The position numbers and the translations under genes were made by a program. This document shows positions 12,975-26,379 of a DNA stretch of 64,000 bases, piece by piece. The notes under the pieces were generated by a model. It saw only the letters and a list, made by a program, of their open reading frames with translations. It was not told the origin of the DNA and ran no database searches. The first letter of the stretch is position 1, and the number at the start of each line of letters is the position of its first letter. Source of the DNA: Clostridium sp. CAG:567 (GTDB taxonomy: Bacteria > Bacillota > Clostridia > TANB77 > CAG-508). The stretch is from positions 138,608 through 202,607 of the forward strand of contig FR902206.1 of assembly GCA_000437855.1 (NCBI GenBank). The letters run 5' to 3'.

Positions 12975-13622
12975 TTATTTAAATTTTAATTGCTCATTCA
13001 TATTTTCTAATTTTTTTATACTAGAATTATCCTTTAATAACTTTAGCTGCCTTTGTGCAGTTTTATTCAACTTTACAAGTCTTTCACTTTGCGAAATACC
13101 AGTAGTTATCATTTCTGCGTTTAAGTTTTCAAGATTTGCTAATACAACTAAATGTAGAATATCCGTATAGTCTCTAATATTTCCACTTAAATCAGGGTTG
13201 CTTTCATGCCATTCTTTTGCGGTGATACCAAATAAAGCAACATTTAAAACATCGGCTTCGTTTGCGTATATAAATTGTTTTTGCTTTTCGGTCAGCGTAG
13301 GGACAATAAATTCTTTTATACTATCAGTGTGAATAACATAGTTTGTTTTAGATAATTCTCTTTTTACAGACCATTCGATTTTACTTTGATAGGCTTCGTT
13401 TTTCTTAAGCCTTTCAAACTCAGTTATTAGATATAATTTGAATTCTACATTTAGCCAACTTGCAAATTCAAAAGCAATATCAGGATGAGCAAAGGTTCCT
13501 AAACTATATTTTCCACTACTTGGAATAATTCCAATAGCATTAAAATCCTTTTTCCAACGATTTGGAGTCATAGTAAAACGATTGTATCCAACTTCAGCAA
13601 CTTTAATTCTGTGTGATTCCAC
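12975..13622 (-). CDS. KilA-N domain protein (phage/mobile-element-associated DNA-binding domain) with a C-terminal coiled coil
   Basis: RFTMTPNRWKKDFNAIGII...FAHPDIAFEFASWLNVEFKLYLITEF. Confidence 0.7.
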   Translation of the reverse strand: MESHRIKVAEVGYNRFTMTPNRWKKDFNAIGIIPSSGKYSLGTFAHPDIAFEFASWLNVEFKLYLITEFERLKKNEAYQSKIEWSVKRELSKTNYVIHTDSIKEFIVPTLTEKQKQFIYANEADVLNVALFGITAKEWHESNPDLSGNIRDYTDILHLVVLANLENLNAEMITTGISQSERLVKLNKTAQRQLKLLKDNSSIKKLENMNEQLKFK

Positions 13623-13674: not shown

Positions 13675-14754
13675 CTATTTTAAAGAATAACTATTATTTA
13701 TTATTGAAATACTGTATATGAATAACACATCTTTATTATCAAAATTAATATAATTTCCTAATATTGTGGGTGAGATGTATCTAGTATCTACTAGAGTTAT
13801 TTTACTATAAGAACTTAATAACAAAGGTGCTAAACTACTTCCATACGAGTCTCTAAAAATTATCAATTCTTTTCCGCTAGTGTTTTTATCGTTAAAAATA
13901 GTTAAAAGGGGAGTAGCACCAGACAAATATATGTCATACTTGTCTAATGAATTTTTTTTATTTAAATCATATACATTAGTATAAGTATTAGTTGTATAAT
14001 TAAATACTCTGGCATTTTTTAATATGTCGTTAGTCATTATATTTATTTCATCAAAGTCAGTATTTACAGGTACTCGATAAGCATAAGTACCTTTAAACTT
14101 TGCAATATTCTCAACATTATAACTAGAACTTGAATAATTGTTCATACCTTTTAAGAGCTCATCAGCAACCTTTTGGATGTTTTCTTGTTTCCAATGGCTA
14201 TCAGTTTTATAATAGTCAGTTAAATTTAATTTGTCTAATATCTTTATATATGTGGCAAAATCTAAATTTTCTTTCATTTTACTTTCAAGCAAATCATAAT
14301 CAATTTTTAAATTATTATCATTTACAAAATAATTTTTATCTGGAACAATTGAAAAATATATCTTGTTATTGGCTAAATACTTATTTTTTATATCTGTAAT
14401 TTTTTTTGTTAAATTTGTCACAGAAGCATAAGAAAGAGGATAGGTCTGCTCAACTAAATAATCGTTTTTAATATAAATGTTATGATAGTTTCCTTTGAAA
14501 GTTAAGTCTAGCTTAGCTTTGGCAGTTCTAAAATTATCTCTACTAATAAATTGATCATTTACATAGGTATCAAATTTACTAAAAAATGTACCATTAAATA
14601 AATTCTGTAATGTAAAACTTGGAAACTGCTCAAGCTTACGCCTTTCGGCAATAGATATTTCTGTATCTGGTTTTAATATATTTAAAACAAATACTAATAG
14701 TAATATTGTTAAAAATAAAACAGATACAATTATATTTTTAAATTTATTACTCAT
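13675..14754 (-). CDS. DHHW-motif protein (AlgJ/AlgX-like SGNH partner of an MBOAT acyltransferase), N-terminal TM anchor
   Basis: KTDSHWKQEN DHHW motif. N-terminal signal anchor. Immediately downstream of the MBOAT gene. Confidence 0.75.
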   Translation of the reverse strand: MSNKFKNIIVSVLFLTILLLVFVLNILKPDTEISIAERRKLEQFPSFTLQNLFNGTFFSKFDTYVNDQFISRDNFRTAKAKLDLTFKGNYHNIYIKNDYLVEQTYPLSYASVTNLTKKITDIKNKYLANNKIYFSIVPDKNYFVNDNNLKIDYDLLESKMKENLDFATYIKILDKLNLTDYYKTDSHWKQENIQKVADELLKGMNNYSSSSYNVENIAKFKGTYAYRVPVNTDFDEINIMTNDILKNARVFNYTTNTYTNVYDLNKKNSLDKYDIYLSGATPLLTIFNDKNTSGKELIIFRDSYGSSLAPLLLSSYSKITLVDTRYISPTILGNYINFDNKDVLFIYSISIINNSYSLK

Positions 14755-14764
14755 ATTTCACCTT

Positions 14765-16156
14765 CTAAAACCTAAAATATAAAAATGGGTTGAATGAATT
14801 ATCTACTAAAAATATTGTCACAATACCTAATAATAAAATCATGTAAATAGGTTGCAAAATATTTATAATTTTGTTCCATTTTGAGTTACTACTTAATTTA
14901 TTTACCAAATTACGTAATAATGGGGTAGAGCCTATTATTCCTAAAATAATAATTACGGCATAACCTTTTAAGTAGTAAAGTGTAGTATCATTTATTAAAG
15001 CTTCATTATTAAGTCCAAATAATCCTTTAATTATTACTCCAATTTGACTCATATCTGTTGACTGGAATATAACAAAACTAATCATAACAATAAATAAAGT
15101 ATAAATTCTTTTTATAATATTTGGCGACTTTTCAATAAGTTTATTAAATACAAATTTTTCTAAAATTAGTATAACACCAAATAATGAGCCCCACAAAACA
15201 AAATTCCAACTTGAACCATGCCATAGACCAGTTAAAGCCCAAACAATTAAGATATTTCTTATCTGAATTGTTATACCACGTCTATTTCCACCTAGAGGAA
15301 TGTATACATAATCTCTAAACCATGAACTTAAAGTCATATGCCATTTTCTCCAGAATTCAGTTATACTTTTTGCAGTGTATGGGTAATCAAAATTCTCTGG
15401 AAAATGAAAACCGAAAATTCTTCCTAATCCTATTGCTATATCTGAATAGCCAGAAAAGTCAAAATATATTTGTAACATATAACTAATTGCAAAAATCCAA
15501 TAAAATAAAATACTTTTATCAGGTACTGAAGAAAATACATTACACAATTCACCTAGGCTATTTGCTATTATTACTTTTTTAGCAAGTCCTATGGTGAATC
15601 TATTAGCACCATAAGCAAAGTTTTCGAATGTATGCTTTCTGTTGTCTAGTTCATTAGCAATAGAGTTATACCTTACTATTGGACCAGCTATAAGTTGAGG
15701 GAAGAAAAATACATAAGTTGCAAATTTAAAAAAGTTCTTTTGAGCAGATACTTTTTTGTTAAATACATCAACTTCATAACTGATTATTTGAAATGTGTAA
15801 AATGATATTCCTATTGGTAATACTAAATTTAGTAATGAAATATCAATATTAAATATGCTATTTATATTTTCTGTAATAAAAGTTAGATATTTAAATATAC
15901 ACAAAAATAAAATATGTATAAATATTGATAAAGCTAAAATGCCTTTATTTTTATGCTTGTCAATCAACAATGCAGAAAAATAGGCAATAGCTATTTCTAA
16001 AATCATCAATAATATATATTTAGGTTCTCCATAAAAATAAAATAATATAGAAGAAAGGAGAAGAACCATATTTTTAAATTTATTAGGCAATATAAAATAT
16101 ACCGCTAATACTATGGGAAGAAAGTAGTATATAAAGCTAATACTTGTAAAAACCAT
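14765..16156 (-). CDS. MBOAT family membrane-bound O-acyltransferase (AlgI/DltB/PatA-like)
   Basis: 463 aa polytopic protein with conserved His in LWHGSSWNFVLWG. Paired with the DHHW gene. Confidence 0.88.
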   Translation of the reverse strand: MVFTSISFIYYFLPIVLAVYFILPNKFKNMVLLLSSILFYFYGEPKYILLMILEIAIAYFSALLIDKHKNKGILALSIFIHILFLCIFKYLTFITENINSIFNIDISLLNLVLPIGISFYTFQIISYEVDVFNKKVSAQKNFFKFATYVFFFPQLIAGPIVRYNSIANELDNRKHTFENFAYGANRFTIGLAKKVIIANSLGELCNVFSSVPDKSILFYWIFAISYMLQIYFDFSGYSDIAIGLGRIFGFHFPENFDYPYTAKSITEFWRKWHMTLSSWFRDYVYIPLGGNRRGITIQIRNILIVWALTGLWHGSSWNFVLWGSLFGVILILEKFVFNKLIEKSPNIIKRIYTLFIVMISFVIFQSTDMSQIGVIIKGLFGLNNEALINDTTLYYLKGYAVIIILGIIGSTPLLRNLVNKLSSNSKWNKIINILQPIYMILLLGIVTIFLVDNSFNPFLYFRF

Positions 16157-16180
16157 AACTATAATCCTTTCAGAAAGTTA

Positions 16181-16267
16181 AAAAGTGTGCCATTGGGGAC
16201 GGAGAATATTGGCACGTTTTAAAATTCTTAACGTGCCAATATTCTCCGTCCCCAATGGCACACTTTT
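16181..16267. repeat. Palindromic intergenic element, copy 1: 38-bp perfect inverted arms around an 11-nt loop; core TGTGCCATTGGGGACGGAGAATATTGGCAC
   Basis: aaaagtgtgccattggggacggagaatattggcacgtt / ttaaaattctt / aacgtgccaatattctccgtccccaatggcacactttt. About 50% GC in a genome of under 30% GC. The same 30-mer recurs at 42531-42634. Confidence 0.85.
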
Positions 16268-16269
16268 GA

Positions 16270-16887
16270 TTATTGTACTATCATTTCAGGTGGAAGTTCA
16301 TAATCAGAATTTTCTGATTTTTCTAATTCTTTTCCAACTTCGTTATTTACGTATTTTTTAAATGAATCATAAACTGGTTTTGCCCAATCTTCATATGACA
16401 TTACATAGAATATTACATTATTGTGATTTGTAATATAGAACTTTTCAGCAGATACACAAATCCATTTATTCATATCTACATTGTCATAAATTTCTTGTTT
16501 AACTTGTTCGATATTTGCATTATTTTTTAGTTTTATAGCAACTAATGAGTATGCTTGAGAACTCATTACAGGTTCAGACACTACTAATTCTTCAACATTA
16601 TCATTATTGGATAAAAATGTATATGAAGAAACAACATTATTATCAGACAAACCAATTTTTTGAGTTTCTAATGATGGCAATTCAACATTTGAGTTTTTAT
16701 AAATTGTATCAATCATAGTCTTCAAATTAATAGAAGAATTATTAGTAGAATTTTGGTTAGTTATCATATAAATTGCAACACCAGCTATAATAACTAAAAT
16801 GGCAATAATTAAAATAATAATTGAACCCTTTTTCAAAAAAATCCCTCCTTCTGAATACATTTTACCCAAGAAGGAGGTTTTAGTCAA
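16270..16887 (-). CDS. Hypothetical membrane-anchored/secreted protein (DUF4358-like)
   Basis: 205 aa, N-terminal TM segment, last gene of the Zn-ribbon/PrsW operon. Confidence 0.5.
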   Translation of the reverse strand: MTKTSFLGKMYSEGGIFLKKGSIIILIIAILVIIAGVAIYMITNQNSTNNSSINLKTMIDTIYKNSNVELPSLETQKIGLSDNNVVSSYTFLSNNDNVEELVVSEPVMSSQAYSLVAIKLKNNANIEQVKQEIYDNVDMNKWICVSAEKFYITNHNNVIFYVMSYEDWAKPVYDSFKKYVNNEVGKELEKSENSDYELPPEMIVQ

Positions 16888-18048
16888 CTATTTATTTGAT
16901 TCTAATCTTTTAGCATCATCAATTTGTTTTAAGCCTAAGTTTATAAAATAAATTATTACAAGCCAAGCTAAAATAGTCATTGCAATTTGAACTAGGTAAT
17001 AAGGAGCTTGAATAGGCATATCCCATATACCATGTAATACAATAGGAATTAAACAAATCAATAAAAATCTTTTATCATTTAAGTGCTTTTTATCTAATTT
17101 ATCAAATCCTTTGACATACATCAATGCTGCACCTTCTATAGCTGCCCAAGCGACATGGCCACCAGGAGCTAAGAAACCACGTAATTTTATAATTTCTAAC
17201 ATTGTTTGTAAACCATTGTTAAGACCAAATCGTAAAATGTATCCAGCTGTTTCAAATGCGGCAAAACCCGAACCAACAGCGGCACCAACTAATAATCCGT
17301 TTAATATATAATTGCTCTTTTTACTTTTAAATAAGAAAATAGCAACTATAACAGCTTTTGCAACTTCTTCAATTAAGCCAATCAATAAAGCACCTTCATA
17401 AGTTTGAACAGTAGCATTTGTTTCAAAATATGGTAATGAAAAATATAATATAGCTAAAATTAGTGATAATGCTCCGCCAAGTACAAAGTATTTTATTACC
17501 TTATAAAAAGGTATATTTCTAAATAAATTAATTTCAAAGAAAAACATAAGTACAGTTACTGGAACAGCAAAAGCTGCTAACATTATCATAAGTGGTAGGA
17601 AGTTAGCATTTCCATATTCTATAAATCCTATACGAGTGGGGATATATGCAATTATGAAAAATACAAATATTTTAAAATATACCCATGCACCTGCATTCTT
17701 TGGGTTAATATCTTTAACATCTGGAGTAGTTTTATCTGAACCACAAACAAAAACTTCATCCAAATCTTCTTCAGTATGCTTTTTGAAAGTATTTTTAAAT
17801 AAATCTTTAAATTTTACATAGTTTTTAGATTGAGCACCTGTTATCTTATCTAGGTTTTCAGTTATTATATTTGAAGCACTTTTTTTGCCGACAGGGTAGC
17901 CACATTCAGGACAATTAATTTCATCTCCATTTAATTTAGCACTACATTCAGGACAAGTTTGCAAATTTATTTTTATACCACAGTGTGGACAAACCTTAGC
18001 ACTAGAAGATATACTTTCTCCACATTCTTCACATTTTATTAAAGCCAT
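16888..18048 (-). CDS. Zinc-ribbon domain fused to a PrsW-family intramembrane protease
   Basis: N-terminal CEECG...CPHCG and CPEC...CPECG zinc ribbons. PrsW motifs EEVAKA, FAAFET and HVAWAAIEG in a polytopic membrane domain. Confidence 0.8.
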   Translation of the reverse strand: MALIKCEECGESISSSAKVCPHCGIKINLQTCPECSAKLNGDEINCPECGYPVGKKSASNIITENLDKITGAQSKNYVKFKDLFKNTFKKHTEEDLDEVFVCGSDKTTPDVKDINPKNAGAWVYFKIFVFFIIAYIPTRIGFIEYGNANFLPLMIMLAAFAVPVTVLMFFFEINLFRNIPFYKVIKYFVLGGALSLILAILYFSLPYFETNATVQTYEGALLIGLIEEVAKAVIVAIFLFKSKKSNYILNGLLVGAAVGSGFAAFETAGYILRFGLNNGLQTMLEIIKLRGFLAPGGHVAWAAIEGAALMYVKGFDKLDKKHLNDKRFLLICLIPIVLHGIWDMPIQAPYYLVQIAMTILAWLVIIYFINLGLKQIDDAKRLESNK

Positions 18049-18051
18049 ATT

Positions 18052-18795
18052 TTATGCCCCCCTTTCTGTCAAAGTTGATAAAATATGAGTTACTACATTA
18101 TTGATTTCAATTGAATTTGTATTTTCTTCTTTAGAAGCTACCATATATACCTTGCCATTAATTAAAACAGCATATCTATTATCAACTACTAAGTGACCAC
18201 TTGAAGTATAATTATATGCTAATCCATAAACTGTTTTATTTCCAATAGTGCCAGAAAGTAAATCAATAGTAACTTTCAAATCACTATATTGTTTTTTCAT
18301 GTAAGTTGTAAAATCATTTAAAAATTGTACTTCACTAGTATATTTGTCATATCTGCCAATAATTATATATGGAATTAAAGCACCTTGACTATCTATATTT
18401 CTACCTACATAAATATATCCTTCTTTATCTGTAGTTACTTTATAAGTACCAGGCATTTCAAAAGATATTCCAAGATATGGATCATTGTACACCGTATAAC
18501 CATAATCAGTTGATGGAGTGGTAGGCTGCCCAGTACCAGTACCACCAGTTCCAGTGCCACCTGTACCTGTTCCAGTATTGTTATTATTTTGATTAAAAAA
18601 CAAGAAACCAGCTACAATTATAGCTAATATTATTAGTATATATTTAATATTACCTTTATTCATAAAGGAACTGGCCACCTTATTATCAGAGGTGGTAGGA
18701 GTCTCCTTTTTATTTAACTCATAACCACATTTTGGGCAACGCTCAGCTTTATCACTTATCTGGTTGCCACATTCGGGACATTTTATTAATGCCAT
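18052..18795 (-). CDS. Zinc-ribbon / single-TM / extracellular-domain protein with a (GT)n low-complexity linker. The start was taken at MALIKCPECG; the ORF is open to 18816.
   Basis: MALIKCPECGNQISDKAERCPKCG, TM helix, TGTGTGGTGTGGTGTG linker. The first 6 residues are identical to the PrsW fusion protein. Confidence 0.6.
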   Translation of the reverse strand: MALIKCPECGNQISDKAERCPKCGYELNKKETPTTSDNKVASSFMNKGNIKYILIILAIIVAGFLFFNQNNNNTGTGTGGTGTGGTGTGQPTTPSTDYGYTVYNDPYLGISFEMPGTYKVTTDKEGYIYVGRNIDSQGALIPYIIIGRYDKYTSEVQFLNDFTTYMKKQYSDLKVTIDLLSGTIGNKTVYGLAYNYTSSGHLVVDNRYAVLINGKVYMVASKEENTNSIEINNVVTHILSTLTERGA

Positions 18796-19116
18796 AACAT
18801 CACCTTTTCTTTTCATATTATGATAATTCTGTGAAAACTATATACAATTACCACTAAATTAAGTATAATATAATCATTACACAACTTGAAACAAAATTAC
18901 CAAACAGTCAATGACAAATTGGTAAAGAAAAAATATTGTTATTTTCATTTGATTGTCACACAGAATTAACTTACAAGATGTTTAATAATAACAAATTTAT
19001 TAAAACATATGTCACAAGCTTAGAAAATGCTGATACAACTAATAGCAATATAGGCTTTAAATATAGGCTTTAATGGATACAAATTATATGTAAATGGAAC
19101 AGCTATAAATAAAAAA

Positions 19117-19145
19117 ATGCACTGCAAAGGTGCATTTTTTATATT
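19117..19145. terminator. Bidirectional terminator-like hairpin in a 630-bp intergenic region
   Basis: aaaaaaatgcac-tgcaaag-gtgcatttttt. Confidence 0.55.
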
Positions 19146-19195
19146 CTAGGAATTTACTCCTAGTAGGAGTAAATTCTGTAGAAGATAAATATGCG

Positions 19196-19254
19196 AATTA
19201 CAAGAATTTCTAGCAGTTTGCACTGCGTAGAAATTCTTGTAATCCGTTTTTTAC
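19196..19254 (+). terminator. Long hairpin (16-bp perfect stem) plus a T-run
   Basis: attacaagaatttcta-gcagtttgcactgcg-tagaaattcttgtaat then ccgtttttt. Confidence 0.55.
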
Positions 19255-19449
19255 TCTTTTAATTTACAAACATCAACCCATTTAACATATTCAGTAATAT
19301 GTTCTAGTTCCGAAATTGTAAGTTCAATAGCATTGTTAGGTTCACCACATGCAAGAAAATAAGATTATATCATAAAAATAAAACTATTGCTATTTTTTAT
19401 AAAATAAAATATAATCTATAAAGAATGAAATAAGAAAGAAGAATTTGAT

Positions 19450-24394: not shown

Positions 24395-25720
24395 ATGAGT
24401 AAACCAATAGTTGCAATTATAGGAAAACCAAATGTAGGAAAATCTACATTTTTTAACTATGTTGTAGGAAAGAGAATATCAATAGTTGAAGATACACCTG
24501 GTGTTACAAGAGATAGAGTATATGCTGATGCAAATTGGAGAGGCAGAAATTTTACATTAGTAGATACAGGTGGTATAGAGCCAGAGTCTGATGACATTAT
24601 TCTTTCACAAATGCGTAGACAGGCAGATATGGCAATTGAAATTGCAGATGTAATTTTATTTGTAACAGACATAAAGCAAGGAGTTACAGCAACAGACCAA
24701 GATATAGCATTAATGTTAAAAAAATCTAAGAAACCAATAATTTTAGTATGTAATAAATCTGATACATTTGGAAAAATCCCGGATGAATTATATGAATTTT
24801 ATAATTTGGGAGTTGGAGAGCCTTTTGCAGTATCTTCAGTAAATGCAAAAGGAATAGGAGACGTATTAGATGCTATATATGATAACCTTCCACCTCAAAC
24901 AGATGATGAGAATGATAGTGATGTTATTAAAGTAGCGATTATAGGAAAGCCAAATGTTGGTAAATCTTCATTAGTAAATAAAATACTTGGAGAAAAAAGA
25001 GTAATAGTAAGTGACATTGCAGGAACTACAAGAGATGCAATTGACTCTGAATTTCAAAATGAATTTGGCAAATATGTATTTATTGATACAGCTGGAATTC
25101 GTAGAAAAAGCAAGGTAAATGACAACATAGAAAAATATAGTGTTATGAGAAGTTTATTAGCTGTTGAAAGAGCAGATGTGTGTATTCTAATGTTAGATGC
25201 AAAAGAAGGAGTAACTGCTCAAGATGCAAAAATAGCTGGAGAAGCACATGAAGCTGGTAAAGGTGTAATAATTGTTGTTAACAAATGGGACGAAGTAGAA
25301 AAAGACAATCAAACAATGGAAAATTACAAAAAAGACGTATATAATAAATTATCTTATTTATCTTATGCACCTATCATGTTTATATCAGCTAAAACAGGTC
25401 AAAGAGTAAACAAACTATATGAAATGATAAATATGGTTGCAAGTCAAAATGCGTTAAGAGTATCAACTTCAGTTTTAAATGATGTATTAAGTGAAGCAGT
25501 AACAATTGTACAACCACCAACAGATAAAGGAAAGAGACTAAAGATTTTTTATATGACTCAAGCTACAACAAAACCACCAACATTTGTGGTATTTGTAAAT
25601 GATAAAGAGCTATTTCATTTTTCTTATGAAAGATACCTTATGAATCAAATTAGAAAAGAGTTTGGACTAACAGGAACACCGATTAGAATGATTGTAAGAG
25701 AAAAAGGAGATAAAGAATAG
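24395..25720 (+). CDS. der: Ribosome-biogenesis GTPase Der (EngA), tandem G domains
   Basis: IVAIIGKPNVGKSTFFN and VAIIGKPNVGKSSLVN P-loops, 441 aa. Confidence 0.95.
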   Translation: MSKPIVAIIGKPNVGKSTFFNYVVGKRISIVEDTPGVTRDRVYADANWRGRNFTLVDTGGIEPESDDIILSQMRRQADMAIEIADVILFVTDIKQGVTATDQDIALMLKKSKKPIILVCNKSDTFGKIPDELYEFYNLGVGEPFAVSSVNAKGIGDVLDAIYDNLPPQTDDENDSDVIKVAIIGKPNVGKSSLVNKILGEKRVIVSDIAGTTRDAIDSEFQNEFGKYVFIDTAGIRRKSKVNDNIEKYSVMRSLLAVERADVCILMLDAKEGVTAQDAKIAGEAHEAGKGVIIVVNKWDEVEKDNQTMENYKKDVYNKLSYLSYAPIMFISAKTGQRVNKLYEMINMVASQNALRVSTSVLNDVLSEAVTIVQPPTDKGKRLKIFYMTQATTKPPTFVVFVNDKELFHFSYERYLMNQIRKEFGLTGTPIRMIVREKGDKE

Positions 25721-25731
25721 TACAAAGGAGA

Positions 25732-26379
25732 GTGATTTTTATGGCAACATATATAATAGTTGCAGTAATTGCCTATTTAATAGGCAGTATTAATTTTTCA
25801 ATAATTATTAGTAAAAAAATGGCAGGATTTGATATAAGAGAAAAAGGTAGTGGAAATGCCGGAACAACCAATATGTTAAGAGCAATTGGTAAAAAAGCGG
25901 CAGCTATAACTCTTATTTGTGACATATTAAAAGGGGTTGTATCAATTTTTATAGCCTTTTTAGCAGGAAAAATCATTAAAAATCTAGATAATGCTTTATT
26001 AGTACAAATTGCAGGAATATTTGTACTAATCGGACACACATTTCCAATCTTTTTTGGATTTAAAGGTGGAAAAGGTATAGCAACATCATTAGGGGTTCTA
26101 TTAACTATAAATTGGCAAATTGGATTAATATGTTTAGTATTTGCATTAATCCTAATAGCACTAACTAAAATGGTTTCTGTTGGCTCTATATCTGCTGGTA
26201 TTTTATTTCCAGTATTAGTTGCATTCATTAACCAAAACTATATTGTTCCCACGAGTAACAGTAATTGGAGTTATTTAATATTTAGTATTATTATAGCTTT
26301 ACTAGTTATATTCAATCATAGAGCAAATGTACAAAGAATACTAAATGGAACAGAAAATAGAATAAGTTTTAAAAAGTAA
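25732..26379 (+). CDS. plsY: Glycerol-3-phosphate acyltransferase PlsY
   Basis: GSGNAGTTN motif. Conserved der-plsY-gpsA gene order. Confidence 0.9.
   Translation: MIFMATYIIVAVIAYLIGSINFSIIISKKMAGFDIREKGSGNAGTTNMLRAIGKKAAAITLICDILKGVVSIFIAFLAGKIIKNLDNALLVQIAGIFVLIGHTFPIFFGFKGGKGIATSLGVLLTINWQIGLICLVFALILIALTKMVSVGSISAGILFPVLVAFINQNYIVPTSNSNWSYLIFSIIIALLVIFNHRANVQRILNGTENRISFKK

Follow-up and report, generated by a model that had tools for sequence, protein, structure and literature searches.

The stretch of DNA considered here, referred to as the window, comprises 64,000 nucleotides (nt) of Clostridium sp. CAG:567 (GCA_000437855.1, contig FR902206.1, positions 138,608-202,607), with a G+C content of about 28%. 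Five co-directional open reading frames (ORFs) span 13675-18816 on the minus strand (Table 1). The first three, here called genes A, B and C, occupy 16270..18816 and encode a membrane protein headed by a zinc ribbon, a protease of the PrsW family headed by two zinc ribbons, and an extracytoplasmic protein with a remote likeness to DUF4358, respectively. The last two encode an MBOAT membrane O-acyltransferase and a DHHW-family protein. An initial annotation, made from the sequence alone, recognized the three ORFs, which are indeed present, and described them as a single operon with gaps of 1-4 bp, in which the neighbor of the protease would be its substrate or partner. The comparison with other genomes supports a different division: A and B are a conserved pair, and C goes with the MBOAT and DHHW genes.

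The pairing was followed through 80 genome loci, 36 of which carry a B that is 62-95% identical to that of the window, while the other 44 are more distant ribbon-PrsW loci. In 33 of the 36 related loci, a homolog of A (33-80% identical) lies directly upstream of B, with gaps of -28 to +15 nt. These 36 loci come from gut metagenome-assembled genomes of uncultured Bacilli, Clostridia, Ruminococcaceae and Tenericutes, plus Clostridium sp. CAG:762. The genes flanking the pair change from locus to locus, so A and B constitute a self-contained module. The relationship is also reciprocal: a search that started from A found homologs at 47% and 53% identity in other contexts, with a ribbon-PrsW gene 0-1 nt behind them, and A adjoins B in every A locus examined.

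The three exceptions among the related loci are of different kinds. One (L019) lies at a contig edge. In another (L026, 4494-4999), gene A has decayed to a 127-aa ORF that covers the ectodomain, having lost its ribbon and transmembrane (TM) helix, and the PrsW gene is intact. The third (L030, 5001-6158), from Clostridium sp. CAG:762, has no gene A at all, and the first ribbon of its B carries the signature CPEC..ISDKxE that is otherwise typical of A. This protein looks like a natural chimera between the ribbon of A and the rest of B, which would have arisen when recombination between the two segments encoding ribbons caused a deletion. A and B do belong together, and it is the synteny that is the strong evidence for this, whereas the sharing of a ribbon, to which we return below, is weak evidence.

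The start of gene A is almost certainly the ATG at 18795 and not 18816, where its longest ORF (18052..18816) begins, because the former has a Shine-Dalgarno-like AAGGTG 5 nt upstream and because 38 of the 39 homologs in the alignment start here, with MALIKC. Only 3 nt separate the stop codon of A from the start codon of B, and the Shine-Dalgarno sequence of B, GAAAGGGGGG, sits within the final, conserved C-terminal codons of A, which suggests that the two genes are translationally coupled. The other short gap of the initial annotation, between B and C, is spurious and stems from longest-ORF calling, which put the start of C at TTG 16887, right behind the B stop. The homologs of C all begin with MKK..., equivalent to TTG 16836, which is preceded by the Shine-Dalgarno sequence GGAGGG, and with this start the spacer between B and C grows to 51 nt. 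Farther upstream of C is a match to the sigma-70 consensus, TTGACT-17-TAAAAT, of a kind that is frequent in AT-rich DNA but suggests that C may open a separate transcription unit. The five genes are two units, A-B and C-MBOAT-DHHW, and not one operon.

Upstream of gene A, an Rfam search found no riboswitch or leader and returned only spurious matches to microRNA (miRNA) hairpins. Three consecutive stem-loops are present on the minus strand at 19105-19270, upstream of the promoter region of A and behind a short ORF fragment. They include a terminator-like hairpin (19140-19112), have no match in Rfam and probably indicate where a degraded upstream gene ends.

Table 1. Genes and other features of the A-B region, in window coordinates.
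Feature	Position	Strand	Description
Gene A	18052..18795	-	247 aa; Cys4 zinc ribbon, single TM helix, disordered linker, PsbP/DcrB-like ectodomain (predicted)
Zinc ribbon of A	18718..18795	-	aa 1-26, MALIKCPECGNQISDKAERCPKCGYE
TM helix of A	18595..18648	-	aa 50-67; helix in model, hydrophobic segment conserved in alignment
Low-complexity external linker of A	18511..18594	-	aa 68-95; candidate cleavage region
PsbP/DcrB/LpqN-like ectodomain of A	18055..18510	-	aa 96-247
Gene B	16888..18048	-	386 aa; two zinc ribbons, juxtamembrane motif, 8-helix PrsW-family core
Ribbons 1 and 2 of B	17890..18048	-	aa 1-26 and 30-53; double zinc ribbon match aa 4-50
Subfamily-specific cytoplasmic motif of B	17674..17820	-	aa 77-125, DLFxxVFKKHTxEExExIFICGTxxTTP...WPKPWLY
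PrsW catalytic core of B	16942..17592	-	aa 153-369; E227-E228-x-x-K231, F262xxxE266, H298, H339xxxD343
Sigma-70-like promoter match before gene C	16859..16887	-	TTGACT-17-TAAAAT, 10/12 consensus positions
Gene C	16270..16836	-	188 aa; extracytoplasmic protein with N-terminal anchor, remotely DUF4358-like
Perfect long palindrome between C and MBOAT gene	16185..16263	.	second copy at 42532-42633
MBOAT (DltB/AlgI-like) membrane O-acyltransferase	14765..16156	-	PF03062, 107 bits
DHHW-family protein, extracytoplasmic partner of MBOAT	13675..14754	-	PF14286, 61.5 bits

The A family is small, with 359 proteins, which start with MALIKC. The N-terminal ribbon of A matches the Pfam family PF13240 (33.3 bits, cut-off 25) as well as PF13248, and its ligands C6, C9, C20 and C23, in the pattern CxxC-x10-CxxC, are invariant among 39 homologs. 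The TM helix is followed by an Asn/Thr/Gly-rich, disordered linker containing the Thr/Gly repeat TGTGTGGTGTGGTGTG (aa 73-88), which is encoded by a DNA tandem repeat with a period of 15 at 18530-18567. In an AlphaFold model built with the same homologs, the predicted local distance difference test (pLDDT) score falls below 50 over aa 68-90, and both the length and the sequence of the linker vary among close homologs, one of which (P0391) has a linker 5 aa longer. The initial description of A as a zinc ribbon, a TM helix and an extracellular domain on a repeat linker agrees with all of this.

The remaining ~150 aa form the ectodomain, which is modeled with high confidence (pLDDT above 90 over aa 100-241, compared to 78 for A overall). 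A Foldseek search of the PDB matched it to PsbP, LpqN and DcrB with E values of 7e-7 to 1e-4 and a probability of 1.0, and to Apa, Tsi3 and EagT6/SciW, with E values of 7e-7 to 1e-3 for the whole set and target TM-scores (template modeling scores) of 0.53-0.65. According to the model, the ectodomain is thus a PsbP-like extracytoplasmic binding fold. Residues that are invariant among the 39 homologs include H201, D205, N206, R207, Y208, E223, E224 and N225. The fold is common to PsbP/DcrB/LpqN/DUF1795-type domains, and DcrB and LpqN are also extracytoplasmic. Unlike these proteins, the ectodomain of A has no detectable membership in a sequence family (no Pfam family, PsbP, DcrB and DUF1795 included, matches it at E ≤ 10), is tethered to a ribbon-TM anchor and is genetically linked to a protease.

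The gross architecture of A is reminiscent of TcaA from Staphylococcus aureus, in which a single membrane span connects an intracellular zinc finger to a large extracellular domain (PMC10328498), and there is a weak NCBIfam match over the ribbon and TM helix (E 3e-6). However, A is not a TcaA ortholog: the score against NF053815 is 26.2 bits, where the cut-off is 550, only aa 12-68 are aligned, and the ectodomains are unrelated. Nor has a PrsW partner been reported for TcaA.

Domain searches likewise agree with the initial description of B as a double zinc ribbon joined to PrsW. The PrsW family PF13367 matches aa 181-364 with 95.1 bits (cut-off 23.5, E 5e-27), and the ribbons match PF12773 (36.7 bits, cut-off 27.3) and PF13248 (39.6 bits, cut-off 27). 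In close homologs, none of the eight ribbon ligands (C6, C9, C20, C23, C32, C35, C46 and C49) varies. The ribbons of A and B thus belong to zinc-ribbon families, and both proteins are predicted to bind zinc. The PrsW motifs, which consist of EExxK, a His and HxxxD in TM helices, were defined previously (PMC4602095). B has EExxK in a TM helix, and HxxxD with an extra His in the preceding TM helix. Since E227, E228, K231, E266, H298, H339 and D343 match these motifs and are invariant in an alignment of 25 homologs (34-84% identity), B is very probably a catalytically competent protease. The juxtamembrane motif at aa 77-125 is kept across the same homologs, matches no Pfam family and falls in a region of low model confidence. 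By the positive-inside rule, the ribbons and the Lys-rich loops of B are predicted to be cytoplasmic and HxxxD to lie at the outer end of its helix, which would fit a cleavage site in the outer leaflet or in the juxtamembrane region. The model of B has no significant match in the PDB, only a faint similarity to APH-1/TMEM147-type chains, and a sequence search found no solved structure of a PrsW protein.

In Bacillus subtilis, prsW is unlinked to sigW-rsiW. B shares PF13367 and the EExxK, His and HxxxD motifs with B. subtilis PrsW (YpdC), the site-1 protease of the anti-sigma factor RsiW, but has about 150 extra residues at the N-terminus, which contain the two ribbons, the cytoplasmic motif and an additional TM helix. 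It also falls far below the NCBIfam equivalog NF033739 (53.4 bits, where the cut-off is 225). B thus belongs to PrsW in the sense of Pfam but is not a canonical PrsW equivalog.

The initial annotation drew an analogy to the PrsW-RsiW system. In a full counterpart of that system, A would be an anti-sigma factor whose cleavage by B frees an extracytoplasmic function (ECF) sigma factor by regulated intramembrane proteolysis. The topology of A does resemble that of RsiW, whose zinc-binding N-terminus is cytoplasmic and is joined by a single TM helix to an external domain, and B is in the right Pfam family. However, the likeness is topological only. The cytoplasmic part of A consists of a 26-aa Cys4 ribbon and a linker of about 20 aa, and Pfam and NCBIfam searches found no match in A to the anti-sigma family (zf-HC2/RsiW). 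There are no genes for sigma factors or site-2 proteases within ±10 kb of A-B in the window, where the neighbors are housekeeping genes, and no sigma factor gene adjoins the pair in the related loci listed. The gene for A is in an operon with that of the protease, contrary to the arrangement in B. subtilis, and the low equivalog score of B also sets it apart. With neither an anti-sigma domain in A nor a sigma factor gene nearby, such a switch is highly improbable and is here rejected. A role in anti-phage defense was also considered, but PADLOC models of defense systems gave no meaningful match for A, B or C and lend it no support.

The initial annotation further did not recognize the fusion of a zinc ribbon to PrsW as a described system. 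The architecture itself turns out to be common. Among 1.84 billion cluster representatives, 441 matched at E<1e-30, and of the best 150 of these (clusters at 50% identity), 106 have an N-terminal CxxC...CxxC ribbon. Confirmed relatives of B are present in at least 593 species genomes, which belong to Bacillota, Bacteroidota and a small number of further phyla. Close homologs with the same architecture number more than 1000, and one of them already bears the name “PrsW family glutamic-type intramembrane protease”. B is a typical member of an uncharacterized subfamily of such zinc-ribbon proteins, with which it shares the FKKHTxEE...TTP...WPKPWLY motif. What stands of the original claim is the lack of an established function: full-text literature searches found no paper describing ribbon-PrsW proteins, their function or the pairing of A with B. 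Fusions of PrsW to toxin domains have been discussed (PMC3239186), but their architecture is different. The ribbon-PrsW architecture is thus already abundant and generically annotated, while a conserved operon that joins it to a ribbon-anchored, PsbP-like partner has not been described before.

Members of the subfamily that lack the ribbon have GYF_2, FHA, DUF805 or a Ser/Thr kinase with GYF_2 at the N-terminus, or RDD at the C-terminus. These fusions, represented by P0361, P0343, P0295 and P0328, make up a wide range of uncharacterized architectures. Since ribbon, GYF_2, FHA and kinase plus GYF_2 alternate at the N-terminus, the head of these proteases appears to be an exchangeable module, in most cases a cytoplasmic interaction or signaling domain.

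As had been observed initially, A and B both begin with a ribbon of the form MALIKC-x-ECG. The two ribbons are identical at 19 of 36 positions, with a pairwise E value of 7e-11, and the identity between the ribbon of A and ribbon 1 of B ranges from 53 to 62%. It is no higher within a genome (60%) than between genomes (59%), and each ribbon holds its own signature across genomes: CPEC..ISD[QK]A[ED] in A (D15, E/D18) and C[KS]EC..ISS[ST]AK in B (S15, K18). The duplication that gave rise to them thus appears to be old, with both copies under separate constraint, and a recent duplication or gene conversion is ruled out by the same numbers. The ribbon is not a signature of this locus either, as the same head is widespread in metagenomes. 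Ribbon-anchored membrane proteins seem to form paralogous arrays (L093-L100).

Within the ribbon-PrsW subfamily, strict pairing with a ribbon-TM-PsbP-like protein is a property of the gut Bacillota clade, and most other members are unpaired. A metagenome scan with a distant two-ribbon PrsW (P0252) returned ribbon-only matches and so has no bearing on partner pairing outside the clade. Eight ribbon-PrsW loci from Bacteroidales, which are related to one another (L046, L047, L048, L051, L055, L065, L072 and L087), have a ribbon-TM protein of a different family immediately downstream of the protease. This neighbor combines a zinc ribbon and a TM helix with a BACON domain (PF13004) and C-terminal DnaJ-like CxxCxGxG repeats, and in two cases it also has a very long Pro/Glu-rich cytoplasmic spacer. 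Ribbon-TM ORFs are otherwise rare in the same loci (4 of 760), and the Bacteroidales neighbor is a hint that a ribbon partner recurs independently.

From the domain content, the intact motifs, the synteny and the fold, we infer that A and B interact and that they are a dedicated protease-partner module, with A as either the substrate or the gate of B. We give this interpretation an even chance of being correct. In this model, the pair would be a self-contained, translationally coupled two-gene membrane module. A would be a type II single-pass protein with its ribbon in the cytoplasm, the flexible linker outside and the PsbP/DcrB-like binding domain on the surface. B would be a glutamic-type intramembrane protease related to CPBP/Rce1, with two cytoplasmic ribbons and the subfamily motif. 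The ribbons would serve as cytoplasmic protein-protein docking modules that hold A beside B. A is considered substrate-like because its topology (N-terminus and zinc site in the cytoplasm, and an external domain that is flexibly tethered) resembles that of RsiW (PMC4602095). Either the ectodomain would sense a cue in the envelope or cleavage would be constitutive during maturation; B would then cut A in the outer part of the TM helix or in the external linker, thereby shedding or inactivating the PsbP-like domain. Alternatively, A might gate the activity of B toward other ribbon-anchored proteins.

Several observations weigh against this model. A is dispensable in some lineages, as shown by the remnant in L026 and its absence from L030, both with B intact, and 32 of the 44 distant ribbon-PrsW loci have no adjoining ribbon-TM gene. 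The cytoplasmic part of A, at about 45 aa, has no obvious output domain, and the variability of the external linker argues against a sequence-specific cleavage site. The structure model of B, with eight helices, has a pLDDT of only 64, and the connection between the ribbons and the core is unmodeled. MALIKCxECG heads are found on many unrelated single-pass membrane proteins in metagenomes. Metagenome contigs (L093-L100) carry tandem pairs of genes for such proteins, each with a MALIKCxECGHEVSDKA-type ribbon and a TM helix but unrelated ectodomains, and no protease. Since such protease-free pairs exist, a shared ribbon and adjacency can arise without any protease-substrate relation. The suggestion that the neighbor of the protease is its substrate or partner thus draws its strength from the reciprocal pairing and not from the ribbon.

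Many of these observations fit a rival scenario, in which A and B are merely co-expressed envelope proteins from a tandem array and the ribbon is a generic module, such as a determinant of topology or membrane insertion or an oligomerization tag. B would then have other substrates, and A an independent function at the surface through its PsbP-like domain. The ribbons on unrelated proteins that are often paired without PrsW, the loss or decay of A where B is kept, the unpaired majority of the distant loci and the lack of covariation between the ribbons within genomes are all as expected from such co-expression. On the other hand, the linkage between A and B is tight, reciprocal and near-overlapping while the flanks change, and such strict operon partners usually cooperate. 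Moreover, A was never found without B among the places examined, and an adjoining ribbon-TM gene recurs independently in Bacteroidales. Simple co-expression is therefore considered rather unlikely.

The intramembrane protease SpoIVFB is controlled by BofA and SpoIVFA, and A could similarly be a regulator or sensor of B and not its substrate. Binding of a ligand to the ectodomain would open or block the active site through contacts made by the TM helix or the ribbon, and B would cleave other, unlinked ribbon-anchored membrane proteins, which makes this scenario overlap with the protease-partner model. The fold matches are consistent with it, as PsbP/DcrB/LpqN/EagT6-type folds are modules that bind ligands, lipids or helices. 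The persistence of B without A in two lineages is what one would expect of an accessory modulator, and the variable linker is without a conserved cleavage motif. Inhibitory partners of intramembrane proteases are also a precedent (PMC9042235). Nothing separates the regulator from the substrate model, however, and no candidate unlinked substrates were identified; we regard a purely regulatory A as unlikely.

A more general possibility, put forward here as speculation that is unlikely to be right, is that the ribbon is a cytoplasmic “address tag”, by which the large PrsW subfamily of Bacillota and Bacteroidota would recognize ribbon-anchored clients through ribbon-ribbon docking. The clients would be the highly abundant single-pass membrane proteins that combine a ribbon anchor with variable ectodomains. 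If so, the A-B operon would be the minimal, hard-wired case of a general system for quality control or shedding of such proteins. Almost all that is known of PrsW concerns its role as the site-1 protease of a single anti-sigma factor, although the majority of PrsW-family proteins in the databases are longer and carry a ribbon, GYF, FHA or kinase head in the cytoplasm. N-terminal ribbons on single-pass membrane proteins are likewise common and unexplained in Bacillota and Bacteroidota, with TcaA as a medically relevant case. The A-B pair is unlikely to surprise the specialist, but as a simple two-protein system, it offers a tractable entry to the substrates of this PrsW subfamily and the role of the ribbons.

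Gene C opens a C-MBOAT-DHHW cassette, which in the window simply happens to adjoin A-B. Homologs of C (55-62% identity) lie directly upstream of MBOAT and DHHW genes in four further unrelated contexts (L004-L008 and L089-L092) with no PrsW gene nearby, while in a relative with an 84% identical B, pyruvate formate-lyase genes come after A-B and there is no ORF resembling C. The complete A-B-C-MBOAT-DHHW arrangement was found in only one of the 80 genome loci (L009), where B is 95% identical and which is evidently from the same species as the window. The proposed three-gene operon is ruled out by this distribution: homologs of C always precede MBOAT and DHHW and follow PrsW only in the species of the window.

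C was also described as a secreted, DUF4358-like protein. It has a hydrophobic N-terminal anchor that looks uncleaved, as opposed to a demonstrated signal peptide. C itself has no Pfam match even at E ≤ 10, but 20 of 27 members of its family have sub-threshold matches to DUF4358 (PF14270), the best with an E value of 1.6e-4, so that “DUF4358-like” holds only in the sense of a remote relationship.

Pairs of an MBOAT protein and an SGNH/AlgJ-like protein, such as DltB/DltD, PatA/PatB and AlgI/AlgJ, O-acylate envelope glycopolymers. The MBOAT and DHHW proteins of the window resemble these systems in combining an MBOAT with an extracytoplasmic partner, but the cassette includes C as a third conserved gene. 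By analogy with these families, the cassette may be expected to O-acylate an envelope glycopolymer. The MBOAT protein is not DltB proper, as it scores 158 bits against TIGR04091, where the cut-off is 375. Separating this cassette from A-B through the corrected gene model provides a functional context for DUF4358-like proteins. In L091 and L092, the cassette adjoins der (EngA) and plsY, two genes that the window also contains (24395-26379). The gene directly behind the DHHW gene (12975-13622, minus strand) encodes a KilA-N domain protein and may be left over from a mobile element or prophage.

The palindrome between C and the MBOAT gene has arms of about 34-38 bp and would form an RNA hairpin with a ΔG of -76 kcal/mol (z -14). 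An Rfam search identified no known RNA in it, only spurious matches to miRNA precursors. Its second copy in the window, about 26 kb away, has a different loop and lies just upstream of another ATG, and the palindrome is also present in L009 (6788-6862). It looks like a repeated intergenic palindromic element, similar to repetitive extragenic palindromes (REP) or miniature inverted-repeat transposable elements (MITE).

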